IMG/VR virus record: IMGVR_UViG_3300050029_000114
Span: 22,052 to 86,051 of that record
DNA: 64,000 bases
Reading direction: 5' to 3' (one strand)
Source of the DNA: a virus
Shown here: one piece after another, positions 910 to 61,080 of the stretch
How the letters are laid out: every line of letters starts with the position of its first letter
Position numbering within the stretch: the stretch's first letter is position 1
Notes under the pieces: generated by a model
The model's database searches: none
Seen by the model: the letters and a program-made list of their open reading frames with translations, nothing else
What the model was told of the DNA's origin: nothing
Translations under genes and position numbers: made by a program

Positions 910-1632
910 TCACAGGTCTTCAATGTACCCGCTCGGCTGCGATCTATCCGTCATCATGCCAGCGTCCCGTCCTCCGCCGTTCGCTTTCGGTGTCGGGCGT
1001 TCGTCCAGCCATCTGTCCTTATTCAGCCAGGTAGCGGGGTAGGGGATGAAGTCCCGTTCGCATCCCGGGAAGGCAGCGAACATACGGGCCGCCGCGATAA
1101 TCGTGTCCGGGTCGGCGCGCTTGACCGCCTTGTCCCATGCTCGCTTGGCGTCGGCTCGGGCTACGTGGCGGGGATAGGGGACGTAGAACTCATCGAATCG
1201 TGATTCGGGGTTCTTCTTCCCTTCATCTACTTCTAAACCTAATAAAAGGCGCGATTCCGGTTCAATACCGCTCTCGTGCGGTTTCGAGTCCGCGTCGGTG
1301 CGGTTTCGAGTCCGCGTCGGTGCGGTCTTGTCGTCGGGGGTCGTGGGCCACAGCCAATAGCTCACGAGAGGGTGCCCTCCCCCGGGGCGAGCCGTGCGCT
1401 CGATGGTCACCGCACCGACCGCTGTCAGGTCTGCGATCGCCCTGTCGAGGGTGTCAGTTGAGTAGCCGGTTAGTTCTGCCAGCCTGGGTCGGCTGGGATG
1501 GGCCTCGTCGCTCGTTATGGCATGGGACTGGAGTACTAACAGGAGCCGAATGGCGCGGTCTGGAAGCGGCGGGTCGTGGAACAGAAACCGTTTATAGATG
1601 GCGACGAATGGCTCGCCGTGAAGGCGGGCCAC
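910..1632 (-). CDS. phage replication initiator (N-terminal wHTH, C-terminal replisome-organizer-type domain)
   Basis: HPSRPRLAELTGYSTDTLDRAIADL HTH; FDEFYVPYPRHVARADAKRAW...IPYPATWLNKDRWLDE; lies between ssb and loader. Confidence 0.8.
   Translation of the reverse strand: MARLHGEPFVAIYKRFLFHDPPLPDRAIRLLLVLQSHAITSDEAHPSRPRLAELTGYSTDTLDRAIADLTAVGAVTIERTARPGGGHPLVSYWLWPTTPDDKTAPTRTRNRTDADSKPHESGIEPESRLLLGLEVDEGKKNPESRFDEFYVPYPRHVARADAKRAWDKAVKRADPDTIIAAARMFAAFPGCERDFIPYPATWLNKDRWLDERPTPKANGGGRDAGMMTDRSQPSGYIEDL
1211..1326. repeat. putative replication origin: 22-bp iterons plus AT-rich tract inside the initiator gene
   Basis: GTGCGGTTTCGAGTCCGCGTCG at 1276-1297 and 1298-1319, partial copy at 1320-1326; AT-rich run at about 1211-1250. 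Confidence 0.65.
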
Positions 1633-2145
1633 CTACATCTGCCAGCGGGGCCGCATCCGATCCCTCGTCGGGTCCGGCGCCATCTCGATAGCGAACGGTT
1701 CTTCCTCTTGCGGTCCCGCATAGGTCGATCCGCCGCTCGCCGCTGTCCGGCCTCCGCTCCGCTCGCTGGGCTCGTTCGGCGTGTGCCGCTCGTTCTTCGT
1801 GACCGTGACGGTCGCCCAACTCATCGCGGCGCCTATCTCGTCGGCGACAAGCTCGACCTTCGACCGTTTCTGGCCCTCTTGGTTCTCCCAGGTCCGCTGG
1901 TCGAGGCGGCCCGTCACGATCAGCCGTGTGCCCTTCTCGATGGACTCGGCGGTGTTCTCGGCTAGCTGGCCCCAGCAGGTCACGTCGAAGAACGACACTT
2001 CTTCGACCCATTCGTCATCCCGTTTCCATGATCGGTTGACGGCGAGCCCGAAGCTCGCGGTGGCCTTGCCGCTCGCGGTGAACCGTAGCTCGGGGGCCCG
2101 GGTGCAGTTGCCGGTCAGGGTGATCGCATTCGTGTTCCTGCTCAT
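1633..2145 (-). CDS. ssb: single-stranded DNA-binding protein
   Basis: ITLTGNCTRAPELRFTASGKATASFGLAVN...FFDVTCWGQLAEN...GRLDQRTWE, acidic EEEPF tail. Confidence 0.95.
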   Translation of the reverse strand: MSRNTNAITLTGNCTRAPELRFTASGKATASFGLAVNRSWKRDDEWVEEVSFFDVTCWGQLAENTAESIEKGTRLIVTGRLDQRTWENQEGQKRSKVELVADEIGAAMSWATVTVTKNERHTPNEPSERSGGRTAASGGSTYAGPQEEEPFAIEMAPDPTRDRMRPRWQM

Positions 2146-2600
2146 CGTGTGCTCGCTGGTGGGTGAGGGTGTCGCTCGTGTGCTGCCTGGAGGGAGGGTG
2201 GGAGCCTGCTAACCAGTCGGGGGGTGAGACGCGGCCATAGGGTCCGGGCCTCGATCCCTTCCTCTGGCTTGGTCGGGTCGACCCATCGGATCAGCCCGTA
2301 GGTGACTAGCTGCCCGAACGCTCGGGCGAGCGGGCTGTTCCGGTTCGTTTCGTCCCGGCCGCCGTGTCTCGGGCTCACGCCGAGGCTGGCAGCGAGCATC
2401 TCGATCAGGATGGGGGTGCAGCGGTCGGGCCTCGCTATCGCCGCAAGGCGTTGCCCGGCTAGGAGGGCCGTCGGTCCGACGATCGGCAGCCAGTACGTCA
2501 GGCTGTAGGAAGTCATGGGGCTCGTGAACCCGTCGGCGGCGGCCGGGTCGCACCATTCGGCAACGATCAGTCTCTCGGGCAGGGGAATCCGGGCGCTCAT
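2142..2600 (-). CDS. hypothetical replication-associated wHTH-like protein
   Basis: YWLPIVGPTALL...LAASLGV...AFGQLVTYGLI; coupled to ERF and ssb by ATGA overlaps. Confidence 0.55.
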   Translation of the reverse strand: MSARIPLPERLIVAEWCDPAAADGFTSPMTSYSLTYWLPIVGPTALLAGQRLAAIARPDRCTPILIEMLAASLGVSPRHGGRDETNRNSPLARAFGQLVTYGLIRWVDPTKPEEGIEARTLWPRLTPRLVSRLPPSLQAAHERHPHPPASTR

Positions 2601-3646
2601 AGCGCCTGCTTTTTGGCGTCGGCGTCGGCCTTGATGATCGCCGTTCCCAGCCGCTTGCGGAGTGTGTCGAGGTTCCCGTTCGTGGACCGCCCTCGCCGCT
2701 GCAACCGTTCGGCCAGGGCCCTCGGGCTCAACTTGGCGATCGCCTCGATCATCGGGTCGATGCCCTTGTCGGCGAACAGGTCGTCAAGGTTGTCCCGCTG
2801 ATATTCGCCTTCCTGGCGGTCGCTGTCCGGCCCGTCTGCCGTTTCGGGGGCGCTTGCCGCCCGTCCCGGCTGCGGCGGCTCTGGCGGCCCTGTGGGGGCC
2901 TCTGGCTGGCTCGTGGTCTTGCCGGTCTGGATAGCTGTCGTCACTTGGGCGACGAACGCCTCGTGGGCAGCCGGAGTCTTGACCGCTGTCTGCCAGGTGG
3001 CCCAAAGGTCGGCGCCCTGTTCCTTCGTCAGTTCCCCCGCCTCGGTGTGGGCGTGCAGGTCGTTCTTCGTCTGCTGGCGGGTCTGCTGGTAGTGCTCGTC
3101 GCTGTCCCAGCCGTGCTCATGGGCCCATATCTCGGCCTGTTCGGCCTCGGTCTTGGTCGGTGCGCCGGGGGCGTCCGTCTCGCTGTGGCTGCTGTCGGCG
3201 TCGTCTTTCGCATCGCCGATCTGGAATAGCTCCATCAGGCAGTACTTGAACGCCTGCGTCTCCGCCTTGTTCGCGCCCTTGTCACTGTTGTCCCGGCCGA
3301 GCCCGATGAGCGGGCCCGCCTCGATGTAGTCGGTGATCCCGCCGGGCCCGTAGACGGTGTAGGTGATCGTCAGGCAGTCCTCAGTCCACGGTTTCCCGTT
3401 GGAGAGGTAGTCCTTGACGGACCGGTCGATGACGTGGGGGACGATGACGACGCCGTGGCGGGCGCACAGCCGTTGCGCCTCTGCGGTGATCGCCTCGATG
3501 CCCCGGTAGCGGTATTGCGCTCCCTGGGTCATCTGCTCGTTTTTGCCGATGGGCGGCATGTCCCGCATGACGCGGGCTATCGCCTCGATGACGTGCGCAG
3601 CGGGCGCCTCGGTCGCGGTCGTTGCGGTCGTGGTCTGCTCTGCCAT
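2597..3646 (-). CDS. ERF-family ssDNA annealing recombinase
   Basis: YRYRGIEAITAEAQRLCARHGV...GRDNSDKGANKAETQAFKYCLMELFQI; GGAGG RBS. Confidence 0.85.
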   Translation of the reverse strand: MAEQTTTATTATEAPAAHVIEAIARVMRDMPPIGKNEQMTQGAQYRYRGIEAITAEAQRLCARHGVVIVPHVIDRSVKDYLSNGKPWTEDCLTITYTVYGPGGITDYIEAGPLIGLGRDNSDKGANKAETQAFKYCLMELFQIGDAKDDADSSHSETDAPGAPTKTEAEQAEIWAHEHGWDSDEHYQQTRQQTKNDLHAHTEAGELTKEQGADLWATWQTAVKTPAAHEAFVAQVTTAIQTGKTTSQPEAPTGPPEPPQPGRAASAPETADGPDSDRQEGEYQRDNLDDLFADKGIDPMIEAIAKLSPRALAERLQRRGRSTNGNLDTLRKRLGTAIIKADADAKKQAL

Positions 3647-4571: not shown

Positions 4572-4862
4572 TCAGTATTGGTACACCGACCACGAGGCCA
4601 GGAGGTTGCCGCCCGTCCACGGCGCCCGGTAGCGGCCGTCGGGGAACACCGCCCCGCAGTTCGTCGTCCCGTACGAGTGGGCCGCGAACGGGATGCCCTC
4701 CCACGAGCCTCGCACCCAATCGTCGAACTCGCTGCCCGTCGAGTTATACCCGGACCAGGCCCGCACGGCGCACGCTAGGGCGGGACCTCGGGTGTGGGCT
4801 TGGACAGGGCTGGCGAACCCGAAGCTCGCTGCCGCTATCAATGCTAGGACTGTCCGTTTCAC
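4572..4862 (-). CDS. small secreted protein
   Basis: Sec signal MKRTVLALIAAASFGFASPVQA; GAGGAGG RBS. Confidence 0.7.
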   Translation of the reverse strand: MKRTVLALIAAASFGFASPVQAHTRGPALACAVRAWSGYNSTGSEFDDWVRGSWEGIPFAAHSYGTTNCGAVFPDGRYRAPWTGGNLLASWSVYQY

Positions 4863-4880
4863 GGGGCCTCCTCGTCCGGG

Positions 4881-4926
4881 GAAAGGTCAGCGCCCCGGGC
4901 CCTCTTGGGGCGCACCGGGGCGCTGA
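4881..4926 (-). terminator. terminator-like hairpin closing the candidate sRNA
   Basis: TCAGCGCCCCGG (4887-4898) / CCGGGGCGCTGA (4915-4926), followed by a weak CCTTTC tail on the - strand. Confidence 0.55.
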
Positions 4927-4987
4927 TGTCGGCCCTCACCGTAGCTCCCGGAGGAGCAAAGGCGTCGAGGGAACCACCGCTCGACGT
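4881..4987 (-). ncRNA. candidate trans-acting antisense small RNA
   Basis: -10 TATAGT at 4993-4998; hairpins at 4963-4986 and 4944-4957 (C-UCCG-G tetraloop on - strand); unpaired GGUGAGGG at 4933-4940; terminal 12-bp hairpin; complementary to several gene leaders. Confidence 0.65.
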
Positions 4988-5166
4988 TGCCCACTATACC
5001 GCTCGGCCGGTCCTCCGGTGTTCCCAAGCCTCATCCCACCCGGCCCGCCATCCCGCCCGGTATGTCTCCTCGAAGCATCGCCGCCCGGCGATCCTCCGTC
5101 CCAGCCATCGCCTCGCCCGCCGTACCCGCGACCCTGGGGGTTGCAGATGCGGGTGATGCACCGGGA

Positions 5167-5610
5167 CTACTTTTGGGCGGCGACCGCTGCGATGTTCACC
5201 CGGTGGATGCCGTTCACGTGGATGGCCGTCAGTAGGCCCTCGACGCCGAGGGCGATCCCGACGACGCTGCTCTGCACGTCGGCCGACACCGAGAACCCTG
5301 GGTGGATCAGGCCGACGAGGGCGACGACGGCCGCTACCGCTCCCGCTATCGCCGTTGCGCCGGTCGCCCCGGTGGCGACGGTGACGGGCGGGCTCGTGTC
5401 GGCTGGCGCCGCGGCCGGGCTCGGGCTCGTGCTCACCCTCGGGTTGAGGTCGACATAGACCGGCAGGGTGATCCCGGTCTGCGTGAGCGCGGCCGTGAGC
5501 GGATGGGATTCGAGGACGGCCTCGCCGGGTGGGAGCGGCGGAGCCCATCCTTGGGCGGCTGCTTCCTCCTGCCAGGTCGGGGCGGCTACGGGCTGGGCCT
5601 GCTCTGACAT
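5167..5610 (-). CDS. membrane protein, holin-like
   Basis: two C-terminal hydrophobic helices (AIAGAVAAVVALVGLI; VVGIALGVEGLLTAI); GGAGGAG RBS. Confidence 0.55.
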   Translation of the reverse strand: MSEQAQPVAAPTWQEEAAAQGWAPPLPPGEAVLESHPLTAALTQTGITLPVYVDLNPRVSTSPSPAAAPADTSPPVTVATGATGATAIAGAVAAVVALVGLIHPGFSVSADVQSSVVGIALGVEGLLTAIHVNGIHRVNIAAVAAQK

Positions 5611-34579: not shown

Positions 34580-35473
34580 TCACGAGGCCCCCGGGCTGGA
34601 GTAGACCGGCAGAGAAACCTCGACTCCGACGTGGACGCAGTTTGGCACAGCCACGACCGCCGGGCGGTACGCCCGCCACTCGATCGTGTTCAAGCTCTGC
34701 ACTATCGCCTGATCCCACGTGTCGGGGACGACCGTGATCGGGCCCAGGTACACGGTCGGCATCAGCGTCGCGTAAGCGAACTGCGTCGCCCCTGGCGCCA
34801 CGCCCTCCGGGCCCTGCCCGGTGTACCCGGCGTCGGGAATGATGACCGTGCCCATGTACGTCTGAATCTGGCCGGGCACCGTCTTGAACGTGTTGCCTAG
34901 CTCCGACCATTTCGATCCAAGCTGCCGGGTGCAGTGGATCGCCCCTCGGGCCCCGGTGCTGAAGTCGGCGATCGCCTGCTCCAAGATAGCGAGCGCGTCC
35001 GCCACTGACGCCGGGGAACCGGAGTTCAAGATGCTGACGCTCGTGTCGTCCGCCAGGAAGAAGTTAGGCCAACCGCTCGCCTGCGCCTGAGTCCCAAGCC
35101 AGAACTCCTTCGCGATCGCCTTGCTCTGCGCCGCCCGCAGCGCCCGGGTGGCCCGGTCCTGATAGGAATGGGCCTCCCACCCGAACGAACTGCACTTATC
35201 TCCCGCCCAAACCTCGAACGGGACCGCGTCGACGATGCCCGGGTTCGCCGGGGTCGACAAGGTGCCGCCGCCGCACGGGTCCACGATCGCTGTCGCCGTG
35301 CACATCTGCTCGGGCAGGTAGCGGACCCCGCCCTCCCAACGAAGCTCCGCCCCGTCGATGTCGGTCAGTTTCTCCTCGGTAACGAGATACGGGCCCGACA
35401 ACGACGCCAGCAACCCGACAACGGGCTCCTCCGCCGGAGGGGTACGGACTACACCCAGGCCGAATGTCGCCAT
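34580..35473 (-). CDS. second capsid protein (pentamer-type)
   Basis: RWEGGV.Y, PFEVWA...CS, RA...L...QSKAI..EFW.G, LAILEQA, GTVII..AGY; follows major capsid. Confidence 0.7.
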   Translation of the reverse strand: MATFGLGVVRTPPAEEPVVGLLASLSGPYLVTEEKLTDIDGAELRWEGGVRYLPEQMCTATAIVDPCGGGTLSTPANPGIVDAVPFEVWAGDKCSSFGWEAHSYQDRATRALRAAQSKAIAKEFWLGTQAQASGWPNFFLADDTSVSILNSGSPASVADALAILEQAIADFSTGARGAIHCTRQLGSKWSELGNTFKTVPGQIQTYMGTVIIPDAGYTGQGPEGVAPGATQFAYATLMPTVYLGPITVVPDTWDQAIVQSLNTIEWRAYRPAVVAVPNCVHVGVEVSLPVYSSPGAS

Positions 35474-46740: not shown

Positions 46741-46917
46741 CTAGACCTTCGAAGTAGTCGCCATGGCTGCGGCTCGGGCCACGGCCGCCTGGGTGCTGGC
46801 CTCCGTGACCTTCGCACCCTTCCCGGGCGCCGGACGCCCTTTCTGCGCGGCGTGGATCAGGCGGGCGTTCGTGCGGGCCTGCTGGATGCGTTCAACGATC
46901 CGGTCGGCCTGGCTCAT
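46741..46917 (-). CDS. small basic protein
   Basis: ATGA-coupled to the portal stop; MSQADRIVERIQQARTN... Confidence 0.55.
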   Translation of the reverse strand: MSQADRIVERIQQARTNARLIHAAQKGRPAPGKGAKVTEASTQAAVARAAAMATTSKV

Positions 46918-49900
46918 ACAAGTCCTCCCTGGCGGGCGATCCGCAAGATAGTCCGGTAGAGGGCGTCGGCGCTCATCGGGTTATGCGGGTCGTCGATCCC
47001 CGGTGGCACCAACTGGTCGAGTCGGCGCATCGCGGCCTGCTCCTCGGTCCGGTACATCGGCCCCCACTCGTCCTGGCTTTCGCCCGTGAACCTGGCGACC
47101 TCGGCCTCCAAGCTCGTAACCTCCTGCACGTAGTCGGCCTCGGTCATTTCCCATGCTGGGGTGCCGCCACGCTCGGCGGCGCTCAGGATCATGCGGGCCT
47201 CGTCGGCCTGGGCGGTCGCCTCGACGCGGGCTATCTCGGCGGCCGCCTCGGCCCGGTTCGCCATGATCGAGTTCAAGTCGTACGGGGAATCGATGAGGCT
47301 GTTCACGTTGAGCCCGCCATACCGGGTCGTGTCGACGATGGCCCGGCCGTTGCTCAGGGTGTTCGCCGCGTCGATGATGCGTGTCTCGGTGAGCCATATC
47401 TGCATGGCTTCGTCGGTCGTCAACTCGCGGCCCAGCAGCCGCGACAGGCTGGCGGCTATCTCGTCGGGGCTCAACGCCGTCGAATCCCCCGCCAACGCAA
47501 ACCAGTTTTGGGTCAGCCGGGATGTTTCCTTGTCGGTCAGCGCGTCGTACCAGTCGGCGTTGTACCCGCCCGGCCTCACGTACTCGCCGTTCACGAGTAC
47601 CGACTGCGGGGGCCGCTGCACCATGCCCTTGTCGGCCTCGGCGTTCTGCAACAGCGACGTGTGCTCGTCCCTGATCCCGCCCAAGATGTCCCTCAACTCG
47701 GAACGGATCGCGTCGACCTCGCCCTTCGCCCACGCTTCAAGCTCGGCCGTGACTTCGCCGTCGGCCTGCGCGAAACCAAGCAAGTCGGCGAGAGCTCCAG
47801 GGTCGAGAGTGCTCGCCGTCCCGGTGTCCGCCATGCTCGTGCCCTCGTCAACGGCGGCGCCCTGGTCAACGAGGTCGCCGTTCTCGTCGACCACCGGGCT
47901 CGGTTCGCCGTTCGTGTCGATGATCACGGGCGCCATGTCGCATGTGCAGCCGTCGTGGTCGCCCGGGAAGAAGAAGTCTGTTTCCGGCCAACCCTCATTG
48001 TTCGCCAACACGTCGTCGTCGAAGTTCACGAACGTCACGCCGTCGAGGGACTGGTGCGGCTCGAATGGCCGCTCGGCGCCACCCCACTGCCACTCGTATC
48101 CGTCGATGCCGCCACCGGCCGCGTCGACGACGCCCATCATCGCCTCGCCCGTCGCCACTCCGCCCAGCGGGTTCCCGCCCGCGTCGGTGACCGGTTGGCC
48201 GTTCCCGCCTTGCGGGTCGGCACCACCGGCTATCCCCATCGATTCGCGCACCAGCGACGAAGGGATCGTGATCGAAGGGTCGGCTTCGCCCAAGCCTGGC
48301 GCCCCGGCGGTCGGGTCGTACAGGCGTTGCCCGGCTAGGGCGGTCAACGAGTCCGTCAGGTTCGTGACGGCGGCGTCGGTCGCGGCCTGGGCTCCTGCCA
48401 TCAGATCGTCGACAGCGGTTTGCGGTGGGGCTCCCAGCCCGGCCTCGATGGCGGTCAACGCCTGGGAGCGGGCCAGGTCGATCCACGCCCCGGTGTCCTC
48501 GGCGAGTCCGTCGAACGCCCCGGCCAGCGGGTCGTCGACTCCGGCCGCGGCAACTAGCTCCGGGCCGCATGTCACCGTCACGAGCCGATTCGGCTTGTCC
48601 TTGATCAACGCTGCGATCAGAGTTTTCTCGCCACCCTTCGCCCGGTGGGTCGCTGCCCGTATCTTCGCTCCGGCGCGCTCCAGGGCCCGGCGCATCGCCA
48701 CGTCCGACTCGATCAGGATGCGGTGCCGTAGCTGGCGGTCTATCTCCGTGAGGCGGGCCCCGACGTTGGTTGCCACTCCGGCGGCCTGGAACGCCTTAGC
48801 GAGCCCTGTGGGGGCCTCTCCTGCCCGAATCTCGGCCCCGGCCGGGGCCGTGTGTGCGGCTGCTGCGGGTGGGGTTGGGGCCGCGGCCGGGGCGGGCGGC
48901 GGGGCGGGCGGCGGGCTGCCTGGGCCCGGTATCGGCATGGCCGGGCCCTGCACGGGTGGCACGTTCGATCCTGGCATCTCGACGATGCCGGACTGAGGGG
49001 CCGGGACGAGAACGCCGGGGAACAGCCCGGTCCTTGCTAGAAGCTGGGAGAACAGGAACGGGTCCATGCGCGGCGAGTTGAGCATCAAGCGGAGAAGTTT
49101 CTCGTCGTCGTCGGGTGCGTCGTCCTCCCTGTACCCGACGTATCGGCGGCGGGCCTCCTCGCTGATCACGCCGTCGCTGAACGCCTGCTGGGCGTTCTCA
49201 GCCTGGTCCGGATGGACGATCAGGGCGGTCGCGTCGAACCACACGAAGATCGTCCGGGCGACCGCGGGGTCTACACCGGCCTCGATGAGCGCGCCCTGGA
49301 AGTATCCGGCCGTCAGGGCGTCGCACACGAGGATCGCCCTGGGCTCGATGTGGCTGTCGAACTCCTCCTCCTTGATGGTGGCGGCGTTCGCGAACGTCGT
49401 GTTCATCATCCCGAGCGTGACCTCGACGGGCATGTTCAACCCTCGGGCGATCCGCAATATCCGCTGGTCTATCTCCGCCGCCAAGATCGGGTCGCGGGGC
49501 CGGGAGAGGATCAGGTGCCGAACCTCTTTCAGCACTTCAGCCGGGCCCCGGATCACCACCGGCACGACGGCGGCGGCGCTGCCTTCCTCCTGTATCGGCG
49601 TGATCATCGACTCGGCAAGGTCGGCCGAGAACGGATCTTCCGTCTCCTCGCCATCGCCACCGTCGCGGGTCGGGTCGGCGCTCCCGAAGCTCAGTTCGCT
49701 CGGCACGAGCAGGATGCCGCTACTTAGCCGGGACTTGGCCCCGGCCCGAACCTCCCGGGACAGCAGCAGCAGCGCCTCGCACTCGCTGAGCACGCCCCGC
49801 ATCGCGCACGTCGCCAACGCCGAGATACGCGGGTGGCGCTCCCACATGCGGATCACCACGTCGTCGGCCGGTACCGGCGTGCCGCCCTGGCTGTTCCCCA

Positions 49901-51605
49901 GCCCGTCCCGCACGATGTACTCGTCGCCCACGACGGTCAGTTCGTCCACCGACCGTATCTGCCACTCCTCGTCTCCGGTGTCGGCGTCCTCGTGGCCGTG
50001 CAGGTAGCACTCGGCGGCGACCTCGAAGTTGAGGCTCATCTCCCGCACCAACGCGCTCTGACCGCCCTCGGTCGACCGCAACCGGGCGAGGGTCGCCATC
50101 GCTATCTTCGCCACCGTCGCATCGACGTTCGCCTCGTCGCTGTCGACCGCGATCGGCGCCTGCTCGGGGTCCGGCTGCACCGCGGCGTACAGGCGCAGCT
50201 TCGACATCAGGTTCGCCAGGAAGCTCGTCGAGTTGCCGGTGTAGTAGACGGTCCCGTTGCGGCGGGCCAGCCAGGTTCCGTTCGCTGTCGTCGGGCACCA
50301 AATCGTCCCGGTGTAAGTGGTCCGGGTGAGGGAGCAGTTGCGGAGCCCGACTGTCACCTTGCGCTTGATGGTCAGGAGCGAGCGGTCCTCGGTTCGGTCG
50401 CGCCGAATCTGTGGAAGGCGACCACTCAGGATGCAGGCCAACGCCACGGGCTCTAACCATCGGCTGTTCTTTTGGCCGATGATCGTCGTGCCGTCCGGCT
50501 TGACGTGGCCGTCCGCGGCTATCGAAGTTGCTATGAACAGTTCAAGCTGGGCAGCGGTTAATGCGAGGATGAACCCGTCGGCTACCTGCTTGCCCGGCGC
50601 CACTGAAAGCAGCAGGGCGGACGCTGCGAGGTTCATCTTGAAATGCGAGATGGTCGAGTTAGGCGGCCGGTACTCACGCCATGCGGGCTCCGGGTTAGTC
50701 GTCCTGCCCGCGCCTAGTGACTCGGCCTCTGGCCCGATGAGCGCGGTGAGCGCCGCCCGGATGCGGGCCACGTTCTCGGGGTACGCGCTGTGCGACTGGT
50801 AGATAACGGCACGGCGCCGGTTGATCGTCCCCTCAGTCCAGAACCATGCCACTAGTTCGACCAGCGCATCCGACCATTTCGGGTCGGTCGGCAAGTCTGC
50901 GCTCGGCGCTGCTGTGAGCAGGCGGAACGGATGGTGGCCGCCCACCTTGCATCGGTCGCCGATGCTGGCTAGCTCCTCTGACGTTGCCCAGCCAGTCAGC
51001 CAATGCCTAGGGCCCGCGCTATCCCGCTGGCGCTCGGTCGGCCAGCGGTGCCCGAGGCTCGACAGCGAAGAATGGTCCCGGCCCTCCACCGACAACATCG
51101 GCTCATCGGCAACCTCAAACCGGTTGACCGCCTCGACCGGCTGCCACTCGCTCAACCCGGTCGCCGTGTTCAACGTCAGCGCCCGGTCGCCCTCCTCTAC
51201 CTCATCGACCGACAACCAACCCCGTGTCGTGAGGATTTCGGACATACGGTCCAAACAGTAATGAACTTCACCAATTTCATCGAAGTAGTCCCATGCCTCG
51301 CTCTGCCAGGTTTGGCGGCGGCGGCGGGCCCCGGCGACGGCCCTGCGGTCGTGTAGGTCGACTCGTGCCGCGCTGGCGATCAGGGCCGGTTGGGTGTTCG
51401 TCCGGCGCCCGAATGTGTGCGCTTTCGCCGGGAGGACCGCGTCCGGCGTGACGGTGCCCTGCGTGGCCCGCTTGCTCTTGCTCCTCGCCACCGACCTGCC
51501 CGGTTCGGGTTCGGTCGGCGGCGGGCTCGCCGCTGTCACCGCGTCAGTGCCTAGGTGCTCCTCCCGGCGTCGCCGCTCGCTCGGTGTCTCCCGCGCCCCG
51601 GCCAT
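46914..51605 (-). CDS. portal protein fused to MuF-like domain and C-terminal extension, intein-containing
   Basis: WQSEAWDYFDEIGEVHY, GILLVPSEL, SAAAVVPVVIRGP, RIARGLNMPVE, VWFDAT.L..PD; MuF-like YEWQWG...H..LDG...PGDHDGCTC; start MAGARETP. Confidence 0.85.
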   Translation of the reverse strand: MAGARETPSERRRREEHLGTDAVTAASPPPTEPEPGRSVARSKSKRATQGTVTPDAVLPAKAHTFGRRTNTQPALIASAARVDLHDRRAVAGARRRRQTWQSEAWDYFDEIGEVHYCLDRMSEILTTRGWLSVDEVEEGDRALTLNTATGLSEWQPVEAVNRFEVADEPMLSVEGRDHSSLSSLGHRWPTERQRDSAGPRHWLTGWATSEELASIGDRCKVGGHHPFRLLTAAPSADLPTDPKWSDALVELVAWFWTEGTINRRRAVIYQSHSAYPENVARIRAALTALIGPEAESLGAGRTTNPEPAWREYRPPNSTISHFKMNLAASALLLSVAPGKQVADGFILALTAAQLELFIATSIAADGHVKPDGTTIIGQKNSRWLEPVALACILSGRLPQIRRDRTEDRSLLTIKRKVTVGLRNCSLTRTTYTGTIWCPTTANGTWLARRNGTVYYTGNSTSFLANLMSKLRLYAAVQPDPEQAPIAVDSDEANVDATVAKIAMATLARLRSTEGGQSALVREMSLNFEVAAECYLHGHEDADTGDEEWQIRSVDELTVVGDEYIVRDGLGNSQGGTPVPADDVVIRMWERHPRISALATCAMRGVLSECEALLLLSREVRAGAKSRLSSGILLVPSELSFGSADPTRDGGDGEETEDPFSADLAESMITPIQEEGSAAAVVPVVIRGPAEVLKEVRHLILSRPRDPILAAEIDQRILRIARGLNMPVEVTLGMMNTTFANAATIKEEEFDSHIEPRAILVCDALTAGYFQGALIEAGVDPAVARTIFVWFDATALIVHPDQAENAQQAFSDGVISEEARRRYVGYREDDAPDDDEKLLRLMLNSPRMDPFLFSQLLARTGLFPGVLVPAPQSGIVEMPGSNVPPVQGPAMPIPGPGSPPPAPPPAPAAAPTPPAAAAHTAPAGAEIRAGEAPTGLAKAFQAAGVATNVGARLTEIDRQLRHRILIESDVAMRRALERAGAKIRAATHRAKGGEKTLIAALIKDKPNRLVTVTCGPELVAAAGVDDPLAGAFDGLAEDTGAWIDLARSQALTAIEAGLGAPPQTAVDDLMAGAQAATDAAVTNLTDSLTALAGQRLYDPTAGAPGLGEADPSITIPSSLVRESMGIAGGADPQGGNGQPVTDAGGNPLGGVATGEAMMGVVDAAGGGIDGYEWQWGGAERPFEPHQSLDGVTFVNFDDDVLANNEGWPETDFFFPGDHDGCTCDMAPVIIDTNGEPSPVVDENGDLVDQGAAVDEGTSMADTGTASTLDPGALADLLGFAQADGEVTAELEAWAKGEVDAIRSELRDILGGIRDEHTSLLQNAEADKGMVQRPPQSVLVNGEYVRPGGYNADWYDALTDKETSRLTQNWFALAGDSTALSPDEIAASLSRLLGRELTTDEAMQIWLTETRIIDAANTLSNGRAIVDTTRYGGLNVNSLIDSPYDLNSIMANRAEAAAEIARVEATAQADEARMILSAAERGGTPAWEMTEADYVQEVTSLEAEVARFTGESQDEWGPMYRTEEQAAMRRLDQLVPPGIDDPHNPMSADALYRTILRIARQGGLV
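50232..51257 (-). mobile_element. intein with LAGLIDADG homing endonuclease (342 aa)
   Basis: Y|CLDRMSEILTTRGW ... HRW ... ELVAWFWTEG ... FIATSIAADG ... IWCPTTANGTWLARRNG..YYTGN|S. Confidence 0.92.
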
Positions 51606-51967
51606 CAGCCCTCGATGTTCTTCTTCTCGATGTACCCGCCGACCGCGTGGATAGCGGAGTCGGCGGCGTTTATTAGCATCTGCACTCCGGCCACGGTCCA
51701 GAAGAACACTAGGTCGAACTTCATCGGCCATCGGGCCAGGTCTACTGCGTGGGCGATAAGCAGCATGGCTCCTGATACCCACGCGCCCATGCAGTACGGG
51801 CATTGCACCAGCCCGCCCAGCGGGTGTGACTGCGGCGGGAACCGGCGGAACCATCGCTCCCGAAGCGAGTCAAGCTGGTCGTCTGAGACGATGTAGCGGG
51901 TGATCCGGGCGGCGGCGAACGCCAACACGATCAGGGTGAGCGCGATCATCGGGTCCGGCTCCACCAT
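51605..51967 (-). CDS. DUF1360-like membrane protein
   Basis: ARITRYIVSDD...LRERW...LVQCPYCMGAWVS; just upstream of portal. Confidence 0.75.
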   Translation of the reverse strand: MVEPDPMIALTLIVLAFAAARITRYIVSDDQLDSLRERWFRRFPPQSHPLGGLVQCPYCMGAWVSGAMLLIAHAVDLARWPMKFDLVFFWTVAGVQMLINAADSAIHAVGGYIEKKNIEG

Positions 51968-52949: not shown

Positions 52950-53253
52950 AGCCCGGTATGGTAGGCCACCAGCGGGCTCTCAGCGCGTGACCTGGGGCGC
53001 GGCACCGCCCCCGGGCTGGCTAGGCGGCCGGGGGCGGTGATACTGCCGGGGGGTTCTACCCAGCCAGCAGGTTGTCCCACTTTCCGGTTTCCTTGCGGAT
53101 GTCCTTCTCCCACTTGGGGAGGGCGGCCTCGACATCGAACTTGCCGCGCAGCGCCTCGGCGAGTTTCACGGCGTCGGCCTTCCACTCGCTGTAGCTCGGG
53201 TGGCTCGGGCTCGGGTGAGGGTGTGCCGTCATCCTACCGCGGTTCGTTCGGCT

Positions 53254-53270
53254 TGTCTAGGGTTTTCTAG
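53254..53270 (-). promoter_or_regulatory. CTAG-doublet box CTAGAAAACCCTAGACA
   Basis: TAGACA-N17-TAGGAT. Confidence 0.75.
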
Positions 53271-53565
53271 CGTCGGCTCCCGGGTAGTGCTTGGCGATGA
53301 TCCGGTCGGCCCACTCCCGGAAGTCAGGGTTCTCCGCTCGGCGGGCCTTGCAACGGGCGCACAGGTCGATCGATATCGACACCCACGGCCGGTCGGGCTC
53401 GGGCCACCACCGCTCGATCGACCCAGGTCGCTTGACGGGCTTGTCGCACACGTCGCAGATGATCCGGGGTCGCTGGCCGCGGATACAGATGAACGCGCCA
53501 TCCGGTAGCCGTCCAGCTTCCCCGGGCGCGGGTCGGCGCGCCGGGAGGCTCGGTCGGTCCGTCAT
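53257..53565 (-). CDS. Zn-ribbon protein
   Basis: CDVCDK...DLCARC; ATGA-coupled. Confidence 0.6.
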   Translation of the reverse strand: MTDRPSLPARRPAPGEAGRLPDGAFICIRGQRPRIICDVCDKPVKRPGSIERWWPEPDRPWVSISIDLCARCKARRAENPDFREWADRIIAKHYPGADARKP

Positions 53566-54059
53566 GCCGCGTCCCGTCTCGGTGTCGCCGCCGTCATCAC
53601 GAGCAGGTGCATGGCGAACCGCTCTACCGCCGCGGCCTCGGTCGGGGTAAGGGTCGGGTCGAAGCTCCGGCCCCGCTGGGCGGCCGCGGCGATCGCCTCG
53701 TCGCGGCTCACTGGAGTTTGACGGCCCGGTACAGGTCGCCGTTCTCGCAGGATGACGCCCTCGCCGTTCGGAAGCTCGGCCAACGTCTCGAACATGCACC
53801 CCGTCAGCGTAGGTGCAGTGCCGTTCGGGCTGGGCGTCGAGCCGGGGGCTGGCGGGTCGTACTCCCATACGCCTTCGCCGATGCGGGTCAGGCCGGGCAG
53901 CGGGGTCGGGGTCAAGTGAAGGGCCCGGTACATCGCCCGGAACACCTGAACACGGGCGAGCCCGGTCCGGCGGGCGATGTCGTCAACGAAGATGCGGCCG
54001 GGCCCGTGGGCGGCTACCTCCGCGAACACTAGGGGACTGGTGGAAGTGGAGCGGGTCAT
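53562..54059 (-). CDS. wHTH-like DNA-binding protein
   Basis: VDDIARRTGLARVQV...IGEGVWEY; GAAAGGA RBS. Confidence 0.6.
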   Translation of the reverse strand: MTRSTSTSPLVFAEVAAHGPGRIFVDDIARRTGLARVQVFRAMYRALHLTPTPLPGLTRIGEGVWEYDPPAPGSTPSPNGTAPTLTGCMFETLAELPNGEGVILRERRPVPGRQTPVSRDEAIAAAAQRGRSFDPTLTPTEAAAVERFAMHLLVMTAATPRRDAA

Positions 54060-54110
54060 CGGGTGGTTCCTTTCGGTGAGGGTGGTGCTCGGGTGCTGCC
54101 AGGAGGGGGA

Positions 54111-54377
54111 CTAGAGGCCCCGTTCCATCTGTTGGGCGCGCTGGCGGTTCACGCCCAACGCGTCGGCGATCTGCTGGTAGGTGGCCCCCGCCTGGCGGGC
54201 CGTCGAGATGGCTGCCATCCGGCGGGTGACCACCCGGGCTCGGTTCTCGTCGTACTGCTTGACGGCCGCGTCGGCCTTGACGACCTTGCGGACAGCGGGG
54301 GCGGCCTTCGTCGCCCTCTCTGCCTTCGTCGGCTCTGCGGGGCGGCTGGGGGCTTCTCGTTGGCTTGTGGTGGTCAT
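54111..54377 (-). CDS. HTH DNA-binding protein
   Basis: ARQAGATYQQIADALGVNRQRAQQM. Confidence 0.8.
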   Translation of the reverse strand: MTTTSQREAPSRPAEPTKAERATKAAPAVRKVVKADAAVKQYDENRARVVTRRMAAISTARQAGATYQQIADALGVNRQRAQQMERGL

Positions 54378-55120
54378 TCGCTGTTCCTCTCGTCGTGCTC
54401 GATGGCCTCCTCGTCGGCGCCATCTGCTCGTGCTGCTCCGATCAGCCGTTCCATTGTCTGCGGGCTGAGGGTGATCTGCTGGCGGTAGCTGTCATACGTG
54501 ATGTCATCGCTAGTGAACCCTAGCGCGTGGAGGGGTGGCTTGACGTGCCGGTCGTAGAACGCCTGCGATGCGTCTCGGGCGGCGGCCTCGGCGGCGGCTT
54601 TCTCGCGGTACTTGACAGCGGCGGCGTCCTGCTCGATCTTGAGTAGCCGGTCCCGGCGCCGCAGGTCGGCCCGGTGGATCGCCGCAACACGTTCCTCCTC
54701 GGCGAGCCTGACCAGCCAGTCGGCCCACGGTTCCTTCAAGTCCCGCAGCTGGGCGGCGAACGGAACCCATATCGTCGGGCCGTCGATCTGCAATGTCCGT
54801 TCCTTGCGATGCCAGTACGGGCCTTCGGCTATCTGTGCGTCGGTCCACGGTTCCCCGGTCGCCGGGTCGATCGTGGTCGTGATCTGCGTCTCAACCTCGG
54901 CGGCCACGTACATGCGTGCCGTCTCCCGCCATGTACTCGTCCTCGTGACCGTGAAGCTGTAGCTGCCGTCGTTGTCGACGAGCGTCCACGGCAACCATCT
55001 GGCGTCGGCGTTCCAGTAGTGAAGCTCGGGGTCAAGGGCGATCACCCGGTGCGAGTTGCGGCCAGTGCGCCCCTCGGCATACCGGTAGATGCCGTACCGC
55101 TCTATCTTCTCGCGTCTCAT
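54374..55120 (-). CDS. hypothetical protein
   Basis: start MRREKIERYG after GGAGG; coupled to neighbours. Confidence 0.6.
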   Translation of the reverse strand: MRREKIERYGIYRYAEGRTGRNSHRVIALDPELHYWNADARWLPWTLVDNDGSYSFTVTRTSTWRETARMYVAAEVETQITTTIDPATGEPWTDAQIAEGPYWHRKERTLQIDGPTIWVPFAAQLRDLKEPWADWLVRLAEEERVAAIHRADLRRRDRLLKIEQDAAAVKYREKAAAEAAARDASQAFYDRHVKPPLHALGFTSDDITYDSYRQQITLSPQTMERLIGAARADGADEEAIEHDERNSE

Positions 55121-55602
55121 CGCTGGGCCTCCGCTTCGAACGCCGCAGCGCCAGCGGCGTGCTCGGCGCACCATTCGCTGTCGGGCAGGGCATCCTCGGT
55201 GCAGCGGGCGACGTACGGCCAGTAGCCCGGGTTCACGACGTACTCGCATCGCGGCTGCGCCCGCTTGGTCGCCCGCTCGTAGAGGGCGGCGATCCGGTCG
55301 TCCGCGGCGGCTGTCTCCCGGTCCTTGCGACTCAGCCGTCGGGCGGGGGCGGCGTTGCGTTCCCGTTCGGCGCGGGCTCGCTGCTCGGCAGGCCGGAGCG
55401 GGCCCGCTAGCCGGGCGGCGCGCTGGTCGTCGTTCTCGACCTGCAAGATGTCGCCGACCCGGTACACCCGTTTGCCTACGTCGCCGGGCTGCACCCGGCC
55501 GATAGCCGAACCGAGATGGTGGATATTGCGGCCGACCTGCACCGTCGACTTGTGGACGTGCTCGGCTGCGATCGTGAACAGGAAGATCGGGCGGGCCGTC
55601 AT
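55117..55602 (-). CDS. hypothetical protein with C-terminal Cys3His motif
   Basis: IGRVQPGDVGKRVY; CEY...RC...WCAEH. Confidence 0.6.
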   Translation of the reverse strand: MTARPIFLFTIAAEHVHKSTVQVGRNIHHLGSAIGRVQPGDVGKRVYRVGDILQVENDDQRAARLAGPLRPAEQRARAERERNAAPARRLSRKDRETAAADDRIAALYERATKRAQPRCEYVVNPGYWPYVARCTEDALPDSEWCAEHAAGAAAFEAEAQR

Positions 55603-55947
55603 GGTGTCGTGACCGCCTTCGGGAAGTGCTCCGGGCAGATCGGGCCTTCGGGCGGGTTCTCAACGAGTCGACCTCGGGTCGTCGGCTTCCCGCAACGAGC
55701 GCACTCCGCGTAGAGCGTCCACTCGACCTGCTCGTTCGCCCGGATCAGCAGGTGCGGGACATGCGACTCGAACGCGGACCAGTCGGCCGCGCCTATCGCG
55801 CTGAGCGTCGAGACGCCCATCGTCTCGCCCGCCTGGTAGAGCGCGTCCCGGGCGGTCGCCAAGTGCGACGTACGCCTGGCGGGCCCGCTCGATAGCCCGG
55901 AGAAGGCGCGCCCGGTTCGCTCGGGCCTTGCGTTCCGCGGCGGTCAT
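55599..55947 (-). pseudogene. hypothetical gene split by a +1 frameshift near 55861
   Basis: MTAAERKARANRARLL...AYVAL continues as LATARDALYQAG...CARCG...CPEH only after skipping one base at GCA CTT GGC G. Confidence 0.5.
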
Positions 55948-56120
55948 CGGTGAGCCCAATCGGCCGTGCCGTCCGCGCAGCGAATCGGCTCGCCGCACTC
56001 GGCGCAGAAGCCGCGCAACGGATAATCCTGGCGGGTCGCTCCGTTGACGGACGCGCCCCAGCGGTTAGTGATCGAGCCGGGCACCTGGGCGGGCTCGGGC
56101 TTATGGTCCGTAGTGGACAT
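55944..56120 (-). CDS. small Zn-ribbon protein
   Basis: GAAAGGA RBS; CAECGEPIRC...WAH. Confidence 0.6.
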   Translation of the reverse strand: MSTTDHKPEPAQVPGSITNRWGASVNGATRQDYPLRGFCAECGEPIRCADGTADWAHR

Positions 56121-56178
56121 GGCGGGTTCCTTTCGTGGTGAGGGTGACAGCGGTGATTCTACCGCGGATCGGTCGGCT

Positions 56179-56195
56179 TGTCTAGGGGGTTCTAG
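56179..56195 (-). promoter_or_regulatory. CTAG-doublet box CTAGAACCCCCTAGACA
   Basis: TAGACA-N17-TAGAAT. Confidence 0.75.
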
Positions 56196-56275
56196 CGGCG
56201 GCAGGTGGCGGGAATCGCTCTCGGGGCGGCGGCACACGTGGCAGGCGTCGCCGTCCGGCCAGTAGCGGTGCCGGA

Positions 56276-56809
56276 TCAACGTGCGGCCCGCTCGACCGTG
56301 ACGGGGCATTCGGCGTCGAGGTAGCGGTGCGGCCAGCGGTGCTCCACGAGGAGCGTCACCGTCCCGTCGCTGTTGTCGGTGCGCTCAGCTACCCGCAGCG
56401 GGTCAAGTCCTTCCCGGTGATCGTAGACGCCGACGATCGTGTCTCCGGGCTCGACGTGGCCTGCGGTCGTCTCTAGCCTGACGGGCGCTGGCGGGGCAGG
56501 GCGGGCCTCCTGGCGGGCTCTCGTGGCCTCCTGCCGTTGGCGGCGCTCATCGGCGCGCTCGGTGCAGGGGCGGCCCTGCTGGTGGTATCCGACGCCGAGG
56601 CTGCGGATCGTCTCGCCGCATGCGTCGCAGCGGAGCATCCGGGTCGGCCCGGTGTCTGTCTGCAAGTCAGGGATTCGGGTGAACCCGCGGACGGTTGGGA
56701 GCGTCGACCAGTGGCGGCGTGGCGGTAGCCCTTGATGGATCGGGTCGTTCTCGGTCCGCCAACAATCGCATCGGTCGCCGTCTCGGGGGGTGAACCGGTG
56801 CCGGATCAT
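56276..56809 (-). CDS. hypothetical protein with Zn-binding motifs
   Basis: MIRHRF..DGDRCDC...H; CDACG...H...C. Confidence 0.55.
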   Translation of the reverse strand: MIRHRFTPRDGDRCDCWRTENDPIHQGLPPRRHWSTLPTVRGFTRIPDLQTDTGPTRMLRCDACGETIRSLGVGYHQQGRPCTERADERRQRQEATRARQEARPAPPAPVRLETTAGHVEPGDTIVGVYDHREGLDPLRVAERTDNSDGTVTLLVEHRWPHRYLDAECPVTVERAAR

Positions 56810-57015
56810 CTGGCCGCCCGCTCGGCTGCCACCTTGCGCTGCCATGCCTTGACGGCGGCGAGGGTGGCCGAAATGTTGTCATGAACCTCGGCGGCCCAGC
56901 CAGCGTCTCGCCACGCCGCGGCTTCCCGCTCGGCCCGGTGCTCCGTCCGGAGCGGCCCGACCCAGCCATCACGTCCGTCCCGTTCGCGGCGCACATAGAA
57001 GCTGGGGGCGCTCAT
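56806..57015 (-). CDS. hypothetical protein
   Basis: ATGA-coupled; GWVGPLR...AEREAAAWRDAGW. Confidence 0.6.
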   Translation of the reverse strand: MSAPSFYVRRERDGRDGWVGPLRTEHRAEREAAAWRDAGWAAEVHDNISATLAAVKAWQRKVAAERAAR

Positions 57016-57251
57016 CGGGGCGGCCTGAACCCTCGGGGCATGTACCGCCACTCGATGACGGTCGCGGTGCTCTCGCCGCGGGCGGCGGCACGCTTGTCCT
57101 GCCGTTTCACGGCCCGCACCAGCCGGGTCGGGGTCGTGTGGAACTCGACCTTGCCGTCCGGGTGCATGACGGCCAGCAGGCCGCTGTCGTCCCGCATCCG
57201 CTCGACGATCAGCTTGCGGACCGTCAAGGTCGGGGTCGGTGAGTCGGTCAT
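57012..57251 (-). CDS. hypothetical protein
   Basis: ATGA-coupled ORF. Confidence 0.6.
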   Translation of the reverse strand: MTDSPTPTLTVRKLIVERMRDDSGLLAVMHPDGKVEFHTTPTRLVRAVKRQDKRAAARGESTATVIEWRYMPRGFRPPR

Positions 57252-57487
57252 CGTCCGGTCCCGTCGTAGCGGCGAACGGTGTCCTCGTTCTTCAGGGTGA
57301 CCTCGGTGCGATTGCCGCCAAGGTCACGCAGCGTGACGCGCACGCCGTTCGTCGGCAGTTCACCGTTCCGGGTGTTACGCGGATAGAACACGACGTGCGA
57401 GACGTTACGAACGTATTGGCGGCGGTTGTCGTGACGGATGATGTCGCCCCGGTTCAACCGGAACGCTGGGATCGTGGTGAGGGCCAT
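57248..57487 (-). CDS. small beta-rich (SH3/KOW-like) protein, leaderless
   Basis: IPAFRLNRGDII; TAGGAT 6 nt before ATG. Confidence 0.6.
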   Translation of the reverse strand: MALTTIPAFRLNRGDIIRHDNRRQYVRNVSHVVFYPRNTRNGELPTNGVRVTLRDLGGNRTEVTLKNEDTVRRYDGTGR

Positions 57488-57513
57488 ACGTCCATCCTAC
57501 TCCTCGGCGGTTC

Positions 57514-57530
57514 TGTCTAGGGGTTTCTAG
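57514..57530 (-). promoter_or_regulatory. CTAG-doublet box CTAGAAACCCCTAGACA
   Basis: identical to the 23321 and 61104 copies; spacer to TAGGAT is only 14 nt. Confidence 0.65.
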
Positions 57531-57961
57531 CGCATCCTGTCAAGCTGGCGGCGGAGGGCGGCAAGCTGGCGGGTGATGTCGGGCCGCATGGGCAGCCCGG
57601 CCTCCCGGGACCGCTGGTGGGCCTCCGTCAGAATGTCCTCCCGCATCAGCGCGCGGCCTAGCTCACCCTCCCCGGCGCGGCCTAGCTGGGTCAGGCACTC
57701 CTCCTTCGTGCTTAGGGCGGAGCGGGCGATCCGCTGGCTGTCCGGGTCGGAGTGGTCTACCCGTGCCAGTCTGCGGGCGGTCCGGGCCGCCTCCCGGTAC
57801 CGGCCGACTAGCTGGCGGCGGGTCGCCGTCGACATCACCCGTGGTGGTGGCAGCATGACGCGGACCTGCCCGGACAGGATGCCGTGGAGGCGCGCCTGGG
57901 CCGGGTCCGGCTCCGGTGGCTGTAGCGGCTCCCCCTCGGGCTCGGGTGACGGGTCGGTCAC
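57527..57961 (-). CDS. hypothetical protein
   Basis: GGAGG RBS, GTGA-coupled. Confidence 0.55.
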   Translation of the reverse strand: MTDPSPEPEGEPLQPPEPDPAQARLHGILSGQVRVMLPPPRVMSTATRRQLVGRYREAARTARRLARVDHSDPDSQRIARSALSTKEECLTQLGRAGEGELGRALMREDILTEAHQRSREAGLPMRPDITRQLAALRRQLDRMR

Positions 57962-58209
57962 GGTCCCTCCCCCGCGACGATCAGGGCCATGAGCGACCAT
58001 ATGGCTGCGGCCGAGTGGCCGTTAAGCTCGCCGAGAACGTTGAGAACGCCGGTCAGGCAGGTGGCAAGCTCGACAGCGAGAGCTCGGGGGTCCGGGTCGG
58101 CCTCAATCTCGCCGACCGCGGTGGCGTGATCCTCGGCCAGCATCGCTGTCACGACCCTGAACATCGTGCGGGCCGTCTCGGCGGTCGGCCCGTGGATGGG
58201 GGCGCTCAC
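57958..58209 (-). CDS. hypothetical protein
   Basis: GTGA-coupled; MSAPIHGPTAETARTMF... Confidence 0.55.
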   Translation of the reverse strand: MSAPIHGPTAETARTMFRVVTAMLAEDHATAVGEIEADPDPRALAVELATCLTGVLNVLGELNGHSAAAIWSLMALIVAGEGP

Positions 58210-60374: not shown

Positions 60375-60509
60375 AGGTATCCTCCTCCTGCCATGTAGGC
60401 GGTCAGGGCGGCAACGATGGCCGCCACGGTATCCGGGTCGGCCTGCTCGGGCCGGGGAGCCCGGAAGCCGGGGCTGTAGGTGCGGGTCGGGGCCAGGATC
60501 GCCGCGCCG

Positions 60510-60842: not shown

Positions 60843-60844
60843 GG

Positions 60845-61042: not shown

Positions 61043-61080
61043 GGTGGTTCCTTTCGGGTAGGTGAGGGTTACCGCTACCC

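Follow-up and report, generated by a model that had tools for sequence, protein, structure and literature searches.

A candidate antisense RNA with extended complementarity to the erf leader of an uncultivated peat actinophage

Introduction

Phage antisense RNAs are known as local immunity devices that act at one or two sites. The C4 antisense RNA of P1 and P7 is encoded upstream of its target ribosome-binding site (RBS) and on the same strand, while the CI RNA of P4 acts upon promoter-proximal leader sites. Both belong to temperate elements, where they serve an immunity function through one or two local sites, and both are examples of leader-derived and operon-internal antisense RNAs. Here, we describe a structured unit of ~105 nt from an uncultivated peat actinophage without close relatives, which may encode an antisense RNA to the 5' leader of the phage's ERF recombinase gene (erf). 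The DNA analyzed, hereafter the window, is the 64,000-nt stretch spanning bases 22052-86051 of the 86,051-bp IMG/VR virus record IMGVR_UViG_3300050029_000114, and all coordinates refer to the window unless marked as genome positions. Of the systems described so far, the C4 and CI RNAs appear to be the closest functional analogues of this unit. The likeness lies in a small structured phage RNA that is encoded upstream on the same strand and has short exposed segments pairing with an RBS or a promoter-proximal leader, with a translation block or early termination as the outcome; the targets of CI are promoter-proximal, as are the boxes described below. In contrast to C4 and CI, the candidate RNA matches no Rfam family, C4 included, even at E <= 10, there is no integrase here, the strong target is found at a distance of 1.3 kb, and at least 10 further 5' ends share the seed match.

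A second comparison is with bacterial seed-pairing small RNAs (sRNAs), since the unit likewise combines a putative promoter of its own with a 3' hairpin and a short, semi-accessible seed that has matches in many mRNAs close to where translation begins. Unlike the targets of those sRNAs, its candidate targets are the phage's own genes, which have one and the same 8-mer placed at a set distance from their transcription starts, and the host group is one that, to our knowledge, lacks Hfq. Actinobacteria also use many leaderless mRNAs.

The 8-mer is the core of a short box that invites comparison with two kinds of phage repeats. The start-associated sequences (SAS) of Cluster K mycobacteriophages are short, asymmetric and of one orientation, with 11-19 copies near the 5' ends of non-structural genes; their 13-bp consensus GGGATAGGAGCCC includes the Shine-Dalgarno sequence (SD) and is separated from the start codon by 3-7 bp, K1 phages have exactly one reverse SAS located away from a gene start, and the function of the repeats is still unknown, the authors having left an RNA or protein partner open (PMC3203893, PMC11373665, PMC12699233). 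The box of the peat phage similarly occurs in one orientation, in multiple copies, and at non-structural genes only, with a single stray reverse copy (15 sense, 1 antisense, 11 at 5' ends), but it is C-rich, contains no SD, lies 13-20 nt upstream of start codons or inside leaderless open reading frames (ORFs), is fixed relative to the -10 hexamer, and has no sequence similarity to SAS. L5-type stoperators are asymmetric 13-14-bp sites that are bound by the immunity repressor in temperate phages (PMC9262239). As with the box, there are many short asymmetric copies in one orientation to transcription, located in short intergenic or 5' regions. The box, however, is 9 bp long and fixed just after transcription starts rather than placed anywhere intergenic, and no repressor or integrase was identified.

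Results and Discussion

A structured unit with complementarity to the erf leader

The virus record is 97% complete according to CheckV, has a G+C content of 67%, and carries nearly all of its genes on the - strand, hereafter the gene strand. Positions 5166-4863 comprise 304 nt without a coding frame signal and hold the candidate RNA unit. Its parts, together with the erf promoter, leader and gene, are as follows.

4998-4993, - strand: -10-like hexamer TATAGT, a candidate promoter with putative activity
4986-4963, - strand: hairpin 1, GUCGAG / loop CGGUGGUUCC / CUCGAC
4962-4958, - strand: CCUUU linker between hairpins 1 and 2
4957-4944, - strand: hairpin 2, GCUCC-UCCG-GGAGC, holding the anti-SD CCUCC and contributing to the 20-bp complement of the erf leader
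4940-4933 (octamer), - strand: linker UAC-GGUGAGGG-CC, just before the terminal hairpin
4926-4887, - strand: terminal hairpin, a perfect 12-bp G+C stem with a 16-nt loop, followed by CCUUUCCCC (to 4878)
3693-3646, - strand: ERF promoter and leader, with a TAGACT -10 hexamer (3693-3688), box (3672-3665), SD GGAGG, and ATG at 3646
3646-2597, - strand: ERF recombinase gene (Pfam and PHROGs)

The hexamer, the hairpins, the GGUGAGGG linker and the 12-bp terminal hairpin had been described in a first-pass annotation of this DNA, and all of them are located where it placed them. RNAfold predicts that the 110-nt stretch folds into two small hairpins, a linker with GGUGAGGG, and the 12-bp hairpin, with a minimum free energy (MFE) of -62.6 kcal/mol (z = -3.87) that was equaled by none of 200 shuffles. 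The octamer GGUGAGGG is predicted to be partly free, with an unpaired probability of 0.1-0.5 and a weak 4-bp local helix competing for it. Genome-wide, TATAGT has seven copies, every one of them on the gene strand; five of these are in GCGCGC-TATAGT promoters and a sixth precedes an HNH gene, while the GAGCGG upstream of the unit's own TATAGT resembles the GCGCGC of the phage's palindrome-fused promoters. Overall, the sequence looks like a small, discrete transcription unit. Five intergenic 12-bp hairpins make up a family to which the terminal hairpin belongs.

The members of this family (62735-62698, 53039-53003, 38564-38526, 23049-23016 and 4926-4887, all on the - strand) have perfect 11-12-bp G+C stems and 12-16-nt loops and lack a U tract. 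All of them are located between genes, where they probably serve the phage as terminators or processing sites.

The octamer GGUGAGGG at 4940-4933 is the only antisense copy of CCCTCACC in the 86-kb genome, and CCCTCACC is the sequence found at the start of the erf leader. There, CCCTCACC-G-AGC-CCCGGAGG faces CCUCCGGG-A-GCU-A-CGGUGAGGG of the RNA, forming 20 bp with two 1-nt bulges exactly as first annotated. The 20-nt complement corresponds to 3672-3653 and covers the SD GGAGG. It reaches as far as the box without entering the ERF promoter, a boundary that fits selection upon an RNA-RNA interaction better than it fits a duplicated promoter fragment.

We compared this match to null models in which the octamer was held fixed and the rest of the RNA was replaced by real genomic sequence. 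RNAduplex without accessibility was uninformative, because the G+C-rich terminator arm pairs everywhere, and was replaced by a partition-function cofold, which charges for the opening of intramolecular structure and for which the null also kept the terminator. By small-bulge Smith-Waterman complementarity, the erf leader has p = 0.002 when considered alone and p = 0.045 for the maximum over 11 leaders. By cofold, its ddG is -29.6 kcal/mol vs. -15.3 +/- 3.9 kcal/mol for the null (p = 0.003), with p = 0.014 for the best of 11 leaders. When the gene strand was scanned by cofold in 3441 segments (mean -6.5, sd 2.85 kcal/mol), the erf leader ranked both first and second, at -28.5 and -24.0 kcal/mol. 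Scaling from shuffles, ~2.3 antisense copies of CCCTCACC would be expected genome-wide, and by our own estimate the chance of one falling in the ~60 nt between TATAGT and the 12-bp hairpin is ~0.002. The complementarity is a real, non-random feature of this genome, and chance alone is unlikely to have produced both an antisense octamer in the TATAGT-hairpin linker and the 20-nt complement. These models support a specific duplex between the RNA and the erf leader, and not a regulon with extended pairing.

The remaining box leaders

According to the first-pass annotation, the RNA pairs beyond its seed with the leaders of about nine genes. All nine of its CCCTCACC sites are present, and for ERF the extended pairing stands (rank 1 of 3441, p = 0.002-0.003), but it does not for the other 10 leaders. 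Pairing beyond the seed across leaders has a summed p of 0.43 by Smith-Waterman, 0.25 by cofold, and 0.36 by cofold without ERF. The Gam-like and SSB leaders match the RNA by the seed only (cofold p = 0.58 and 0.72, respectively). Similarly, ERF is the leader that outranks random sites in the scan; the other box leaders lie at -17 to -18 kcal/mol, within the top 0.5%, where several segments without a box equal or beat them with values up to -21.7 kcal/mol.

A match of three exposed segments had also been proposed for the leaders of genes 54059 and 61042. The loop of hairpin 1, CGGUGGUUCC, is indeed complementary to GGAACCACC in the RBS spacers of both genes, located directly or 2 nt before the ATG. 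However, this is weak evidence: GGAACCACC lies within a shared CGAAAGGAACC RBS cassette that is found in four box (or one-mismatch box) leaders, so the two leaders share one cassette, and 8% of null RNAs (0.083) have a perfect complement of at least 9 nt to any leader, with 0.5% (0.005) having one to two leaders. The loop-plus-seed match is not above the null in energy and is marginal by a k-mer test. In the leaderless gene 57487, ATG-GCCCTCACC is complementary to the RNA, so the match reported right after this ATG is correct. Overall, a multi-target regulon seems rather unlikely from these comparisons.

The box and its promoters

Counting CCCTCACC against shuffled sequence, as the first-pass annotation had suggested, yielded 12 matches in the window vs. 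3.47 +/- 1.9, and none of 100 shuffles reached 12. Two of the window copies beyond the nine already listed (26970 and 50325) are both within genes. Genome-wide (86 kb), there are 15 sense copies vs. ~2 expected and one antisense copy; 11 of the sense copies are located at gene 5' ends and the remaining four are deep in genes, which is about chance level. The box proper is a 9-mer, ACCCTCACC, i.e. (A)CCCTCACC, with the A present in 8 of 11 copies vs. a background of 0.19 (binomial p ~1e-4). The seed equals the 8-mer core of the box rather than the whole of it. The features of the other box-bearing units within the window are as follows.

4553-4506, - strand: Gam-like promoter and leader, with GCGCGC-TAAGGT, box (4527-4520), SD GGAGG, and ATG at 4506
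4506-3868, - strand: Mu Gam-like gene (Pfam and PHROGs)
2200-2145, - strand: SSB leader, with its box (2169-2162) preceded by the shared element CCTCCAGGCAGCACACGAGC and no TAnnnT
2145-1633, - strand: SSB gene (Pfam and PHROGs)
53185-61110, - strand: six more box-bearing 5' ends, at 61068, 59703, 57483 (leaderless), 56144, 54082 and 53221

The boxes are tied chiefly to transcription starts rather than to RBS regions, where the first-pass annotation had placed them. In eight exact and four one-mismatch cases, the box begins 9-12 nt past a -10 hexamer, corresponding to ~+3 to +12 of the transcript, and this spacing holds across 12 promoters of two classes, leadered and leaderless alike. In leadered genes, 13-20 nt separate the end of the box from the start codon, and the SD follows the box directly. 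In leaderless genes, it forms codons 2-4, as in TAGGAT-N6-ATG-gCCCTCACC at 57487, with the same arrangement at genome positions 13023, 16259, 18968 and 1302. The first promoter type is CTAGAAAcCCCTAGACA-N17/18-TAGGAT/TAGAAT, with nine copies, and the second is the palindrome-fused (C)TAGCGCGC-TA(T/G)AGT, with 13 copies. Promoters of the CTAGAAAcCCCTAGACA-N17/18-TAGGAT type precede four of the six box sites within 53185-61110, while the boxes at 54082, 2169 and 59703 have no recognizable -10 hexamer. The boxed units include small orphan genes, a secreted phosphoesterase, Gam, ERF, SSB, a UvrD-like helicase, and others, whereas the promoters of structural and lysis genes have no box. The box therefore marks non-structural transcription units, comprising at least 11 transcripts.

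Several further features of these promoters were apparent. Across the whole genome, the -10 hexamers are biased toward the gene strand (gene vs. other strand, TATAGT 7:0, TAGAGT 6:2, TAGGAT 8:2, TAGAAT 4:0), with examples in the window at 61086, 25905, 15933, 6145 and 4998, a bias that fits ~25 SigA-like promoters of two repeated architectures. The boxes at 54082 and 2169 share a ~35-nt upstream element, CCTCC(T/A)GGCAGCAC(C/A)CGAGC..CA-CCCTCACC, which contains no TAnnnT (54065-54115 and 2150-2200, - strand) and could be an unrecognized promoter class or an RNA element. The box copy at 2169 lies within the 3' end of an upstream 152-aa ORF.

A proposed role at the erf leader and its alternatives

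From the sequence, the predicted structure and the complementarity statistics, we infer the following scheme of RNA production, leader pairing and translational repression. The unit 4987-4881(-) would most likely be transcribed from its own TATAGT promoter and end at least partly at the 12-bp hairpin, yielding a structured RNA of ~105 nt. Hairpin 2 and the linker that follows it would be antisense to the erf 5' leader, 1.3 kb downstream on the same strand. The resulting 20-bp duplex with its two single-A bulges would span the leader from the 5'-terminal box through the SD, where it would keep the 30S subunit from binding and might also leave the transcript open to decay or Rho termination. The GGUGAGGG core also matches the box at ~+3 to +12 of 10 or more other non-structural transcripts, which may be weaker, seed-only targets. 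We assign a probability of roughly 0.4 to an antisense (or leader-derived) RNA targeting the erf leader. A broader proposal, in which a lytic actinophage uses one ~105-nt RNA as a global switch to shut down 11-16 boxed non-structural units, leadered and leaderless alike, with the recombinase leader having the highest affinity, strikes us as unlikely. The promoter-proximal position of the box does not exclude an RNA mechanism, because the CI RNA of P4 acts on promoter-proximal leader sites. No integrase had been evident on first inspection, and indeed no integrase or serine recombinase was found across the 86-kb genome, nor was any repressor family identified among the phage genes. The absence of an integrase makes an immunity role less likely than a temporal one.

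If the broader proposal were true, control of an entire class of phage transcripts by one phage RNA, through a 5' box that they share, would constitute a new mode of timing gene expression. On the conservative reading, the locus offers a concrete pair of antisense RNA and erf leader that is amenable to in vitro work, and the promoter-proximal 9-mer defines a marker of the non-structural regulon. In Hfq-less actinobacterial hosts rich in leaderless mRNAs, such an RNA would also be informative about their regulation.

Several observations weigh against an antisense RNA acting upon the erf leader, and they are given here and in the paragraphs below together with the alternatives that they bear on. 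Family-wise p-values of 0.014-0.045 are modest for a feature that was recognized post hoc, and 10 of the 11 box leaders bind the RNA no better than they would any RNA with the same exposed octamer. In addition, no relatives were found across INPHARED, IMG/VR, JGI metagenome contigs, or a set of 5.8 billion proteins. A blastn search of the locus and a tblastn search of Gam against 50,697 phage records returned nothing useful, no related loci with Gam and ERF were found in IMG/VR, and Gam homologues among the 5.8 billion proteins share no more than 39% identity. Exact-pattern scans of IMG/VR for both promoter types gave nothing or single chance matches, while the class A promoter pattern was found in 50 unrelated, mostly low-GC stretches of metagenome contigs. 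The nearest genome, IMGVR_UViG_3300003267_000132, has a major capsid protein that is 53% identical but lacks ERF, the box, and promoters of either class A or B, so that it is uninformative here. The Rfam search suggested for the first-pass candidate yielded no family match: cmscan of the whole window at gathering thresholds reported only a tRNA, and at E <= 10 the region 4700-5300 gave six chance-level matches, none of them C4.

A further set of points concerns the genes on either side of the unit.

5610-5167, - strand: holin-like gene with two transmembrane segments, at the end of the tail/lysis block and the upstream neighbor of the non-coding stretch
4862-4572, - strand: 96-aa gene with a signal-peptide-like N-terminus, SD GAGGAGG, a GUG start, and a third-position G+C content (GC3) of up to 1.0 in frame

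The 96-aa gene was assigned to no family in Pfam or PHROGs. A consensus scan detected no canonical U-tailed terminator in the region, and the SD of the 96-aa gene lies ~12 nt and its GUG 24 nt past the terminal hairpin, with no promoter between them. As the 96-aa gene has no promoter of its own, some transcripts must read through the hairpin. When its RBS is included in the fold, GGUGGUUCCCUCG pairs with the CGAGGAGGCC SD region and replaces hairpin 1, a result upon which both the MFE and the centroid structures agree (z = -2.88). The unit could accordingly combine the terminator of the upstream lysis/structural operon with an attenuator or 5' leader belonging to the 96-aa gene for a secreted protein, in which case the anti-SD-rich 5' part would sequester the RBS of that gene in read-through transcripts. 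Such an arrangement would also agree with the other four hairpins of the family, which follow stop codons in the manner of terminators, but it would not require the octamer and the 20 nt that are antisense to a gene at a distance of 1.3 kb. We consider this explanation rather improbable, yet it is a serious rival or an additional role. The cis-leader and antisense functions are not exclusive, as leader-derived antisense RNAs such as P1 C4 and P4 CI are known.

The box itself provides another point against pairing as its purpose. The candidate RNA has a C opposite the conserved A at -1 of the box, where a U would be needed for pairing. This unmatched A and the fixed -10-to-box distance imply that the box is maintained by another reader, whether a protein, RNA polymerase, or the ribosome, and the candidate RNA may exploit a box that is kept by such a reader. 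Taken further, ACCCTCACC could be a promoter-proximal cis element read by something else entirely, with the antisense octamer being incidental. Candidate readers would be a DNA-binding protein of phage or host origin (acting at +3 to +12 in the manner of an operator or roadblock, as at the L5 stoperators), a protein recognizing a nut-like RNA site, or the ribosome. This would account for the 9-12-nt spacing in 12 promoters of two classes and for the bimodal distance to the start codon, 13-20 nt upstream vs. inside codons 2-4, and a single antisense octamer is no more than composition predicts. The Cluster K SAS are likewise kept where the anti-SAS loop described below has diverged, and asymmetric one-orientation repeats bound by protein are established in Cluster A mycobacteriophages (PMC9262239). 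Even so, a cis element leaves unexplained both the 20-bp complementarity to the erf leader and the place of the antisense copy in the linker between promoter and hairpin. Nor does it sit well with the boxes at 54082, 2169 and 59703, which are 15-20 nt before start codons yet have no recognizable -10, and the early genes, which are orphans, yielded no candidate for a binding protein. We view a cis element as possible, though less probable than an antisense RNA to the erf leader.

Lastly, the complementarity might be a remnant or due to chance. On the + strand, 4933-4978 resembles a degenerate inverted box-SD cassette (CCCTCACC...CCGGAGGAG...AAAGG...GGAACCACC), in which leader elements occur in leader order, and the many paralogous promoter-leader cassettes of this phage could recombine. 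However, no + strand promoter or ORF follows 4933-4978, the segment combines features of two leader types, its complementary parts fall in the loops and linkers of a stable fold, and the match extends precisely as far as the erf leader is transcribed. Of the explanations considered, this is the least likely. A + strand gene downstream of the + strand box was also considered and rejected, as there is no promoter, start codon or coding signal.

A comparable hairpin in Cluster K phages

As a side test of box-plus-antisense arrangements, we examined the reverse SAS of Cluster K, of which Pope et al. reported one copy in each K1 genome. In the Mycobacterium phage Anaya (JF704106), the reverse SAS lies in the 385-nt non-coding gap between gp96 and gp97 (34850-34910), where the gene strand is predicted to form a long hairpin (z = -4.29) whose 10-nt apical loop presents the anti-SAS CCUCCUAUCC. 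The element was found in 128 Cluster K genomes. An alignment of it from 13 phages contains seven pairs with compensatory changes along with many G-U pairs that are strand-specific, while indels of 1-2 nt argue against the coding sequence annotated there in some records. No Rfam family matched the element. The hairpin may be an undescribed non-coding RNA linked to the SAS puzzle, and by analogy the Cluster K repeats may find their explanation in a start-associated box whose one antisense copy is exposed on a structured RNA. Amgine has kept 11 exact SAS copies with a diverged loop and the loop of SirPhilip is unrelated, indicating that SAS does not depend on a perfect anti-SAS loop. The Cluster K case thus raises the prior for systems composed of a box and an antisense RNA, and at the same time it shows that such boxes can persist without the RNA. 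It also provides a testable hypothesis, in a cultivable system, for a puzzle that has been open since 2011.

Further observations on the phage and its locus

DNA of the phage is present in three peat metagenomes (DNA runs). The other two of these samples contain only the identical phage at low depth, with no variants seen and with the bin of the candidate RNA uncovered. Its major capsid protein is at most 39% identical to proteins of Arthrobacter, Microbacterium and Gordonia phages, 39% being the best value among isolates.

Upstream of the TATAGT of the candidate unit, 4999-5166 (- strand) is a G-rich non-coding stretch of ~170 nt (GGGCGGGAUGGCGGGCCGGGUGGGAUGAGGCUUGGG), which could be part of a longer 3' untranslated region or non-coding RNA, or could form a G-quadruplex. 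Among the box-bearing genes, the one at 58206-59675 (- strand) encodes a 489-aa protein with a signal-peptide-like N-terminus and a Pfam Phosphoesterase domain (PF04185, phospholipase C / acid phosphatase type), an unusual cargo between terminase and portal genes. Outside the window, at genome positions 1337-3091, the large terminase occupies the far end of the contig, and the portal forms part of a fused protein of 1646 aa (46914-51854); these positions indicate that the contig was opened within the genome. Between terminase and portal lie ~12 kb of small box-bearing genes.

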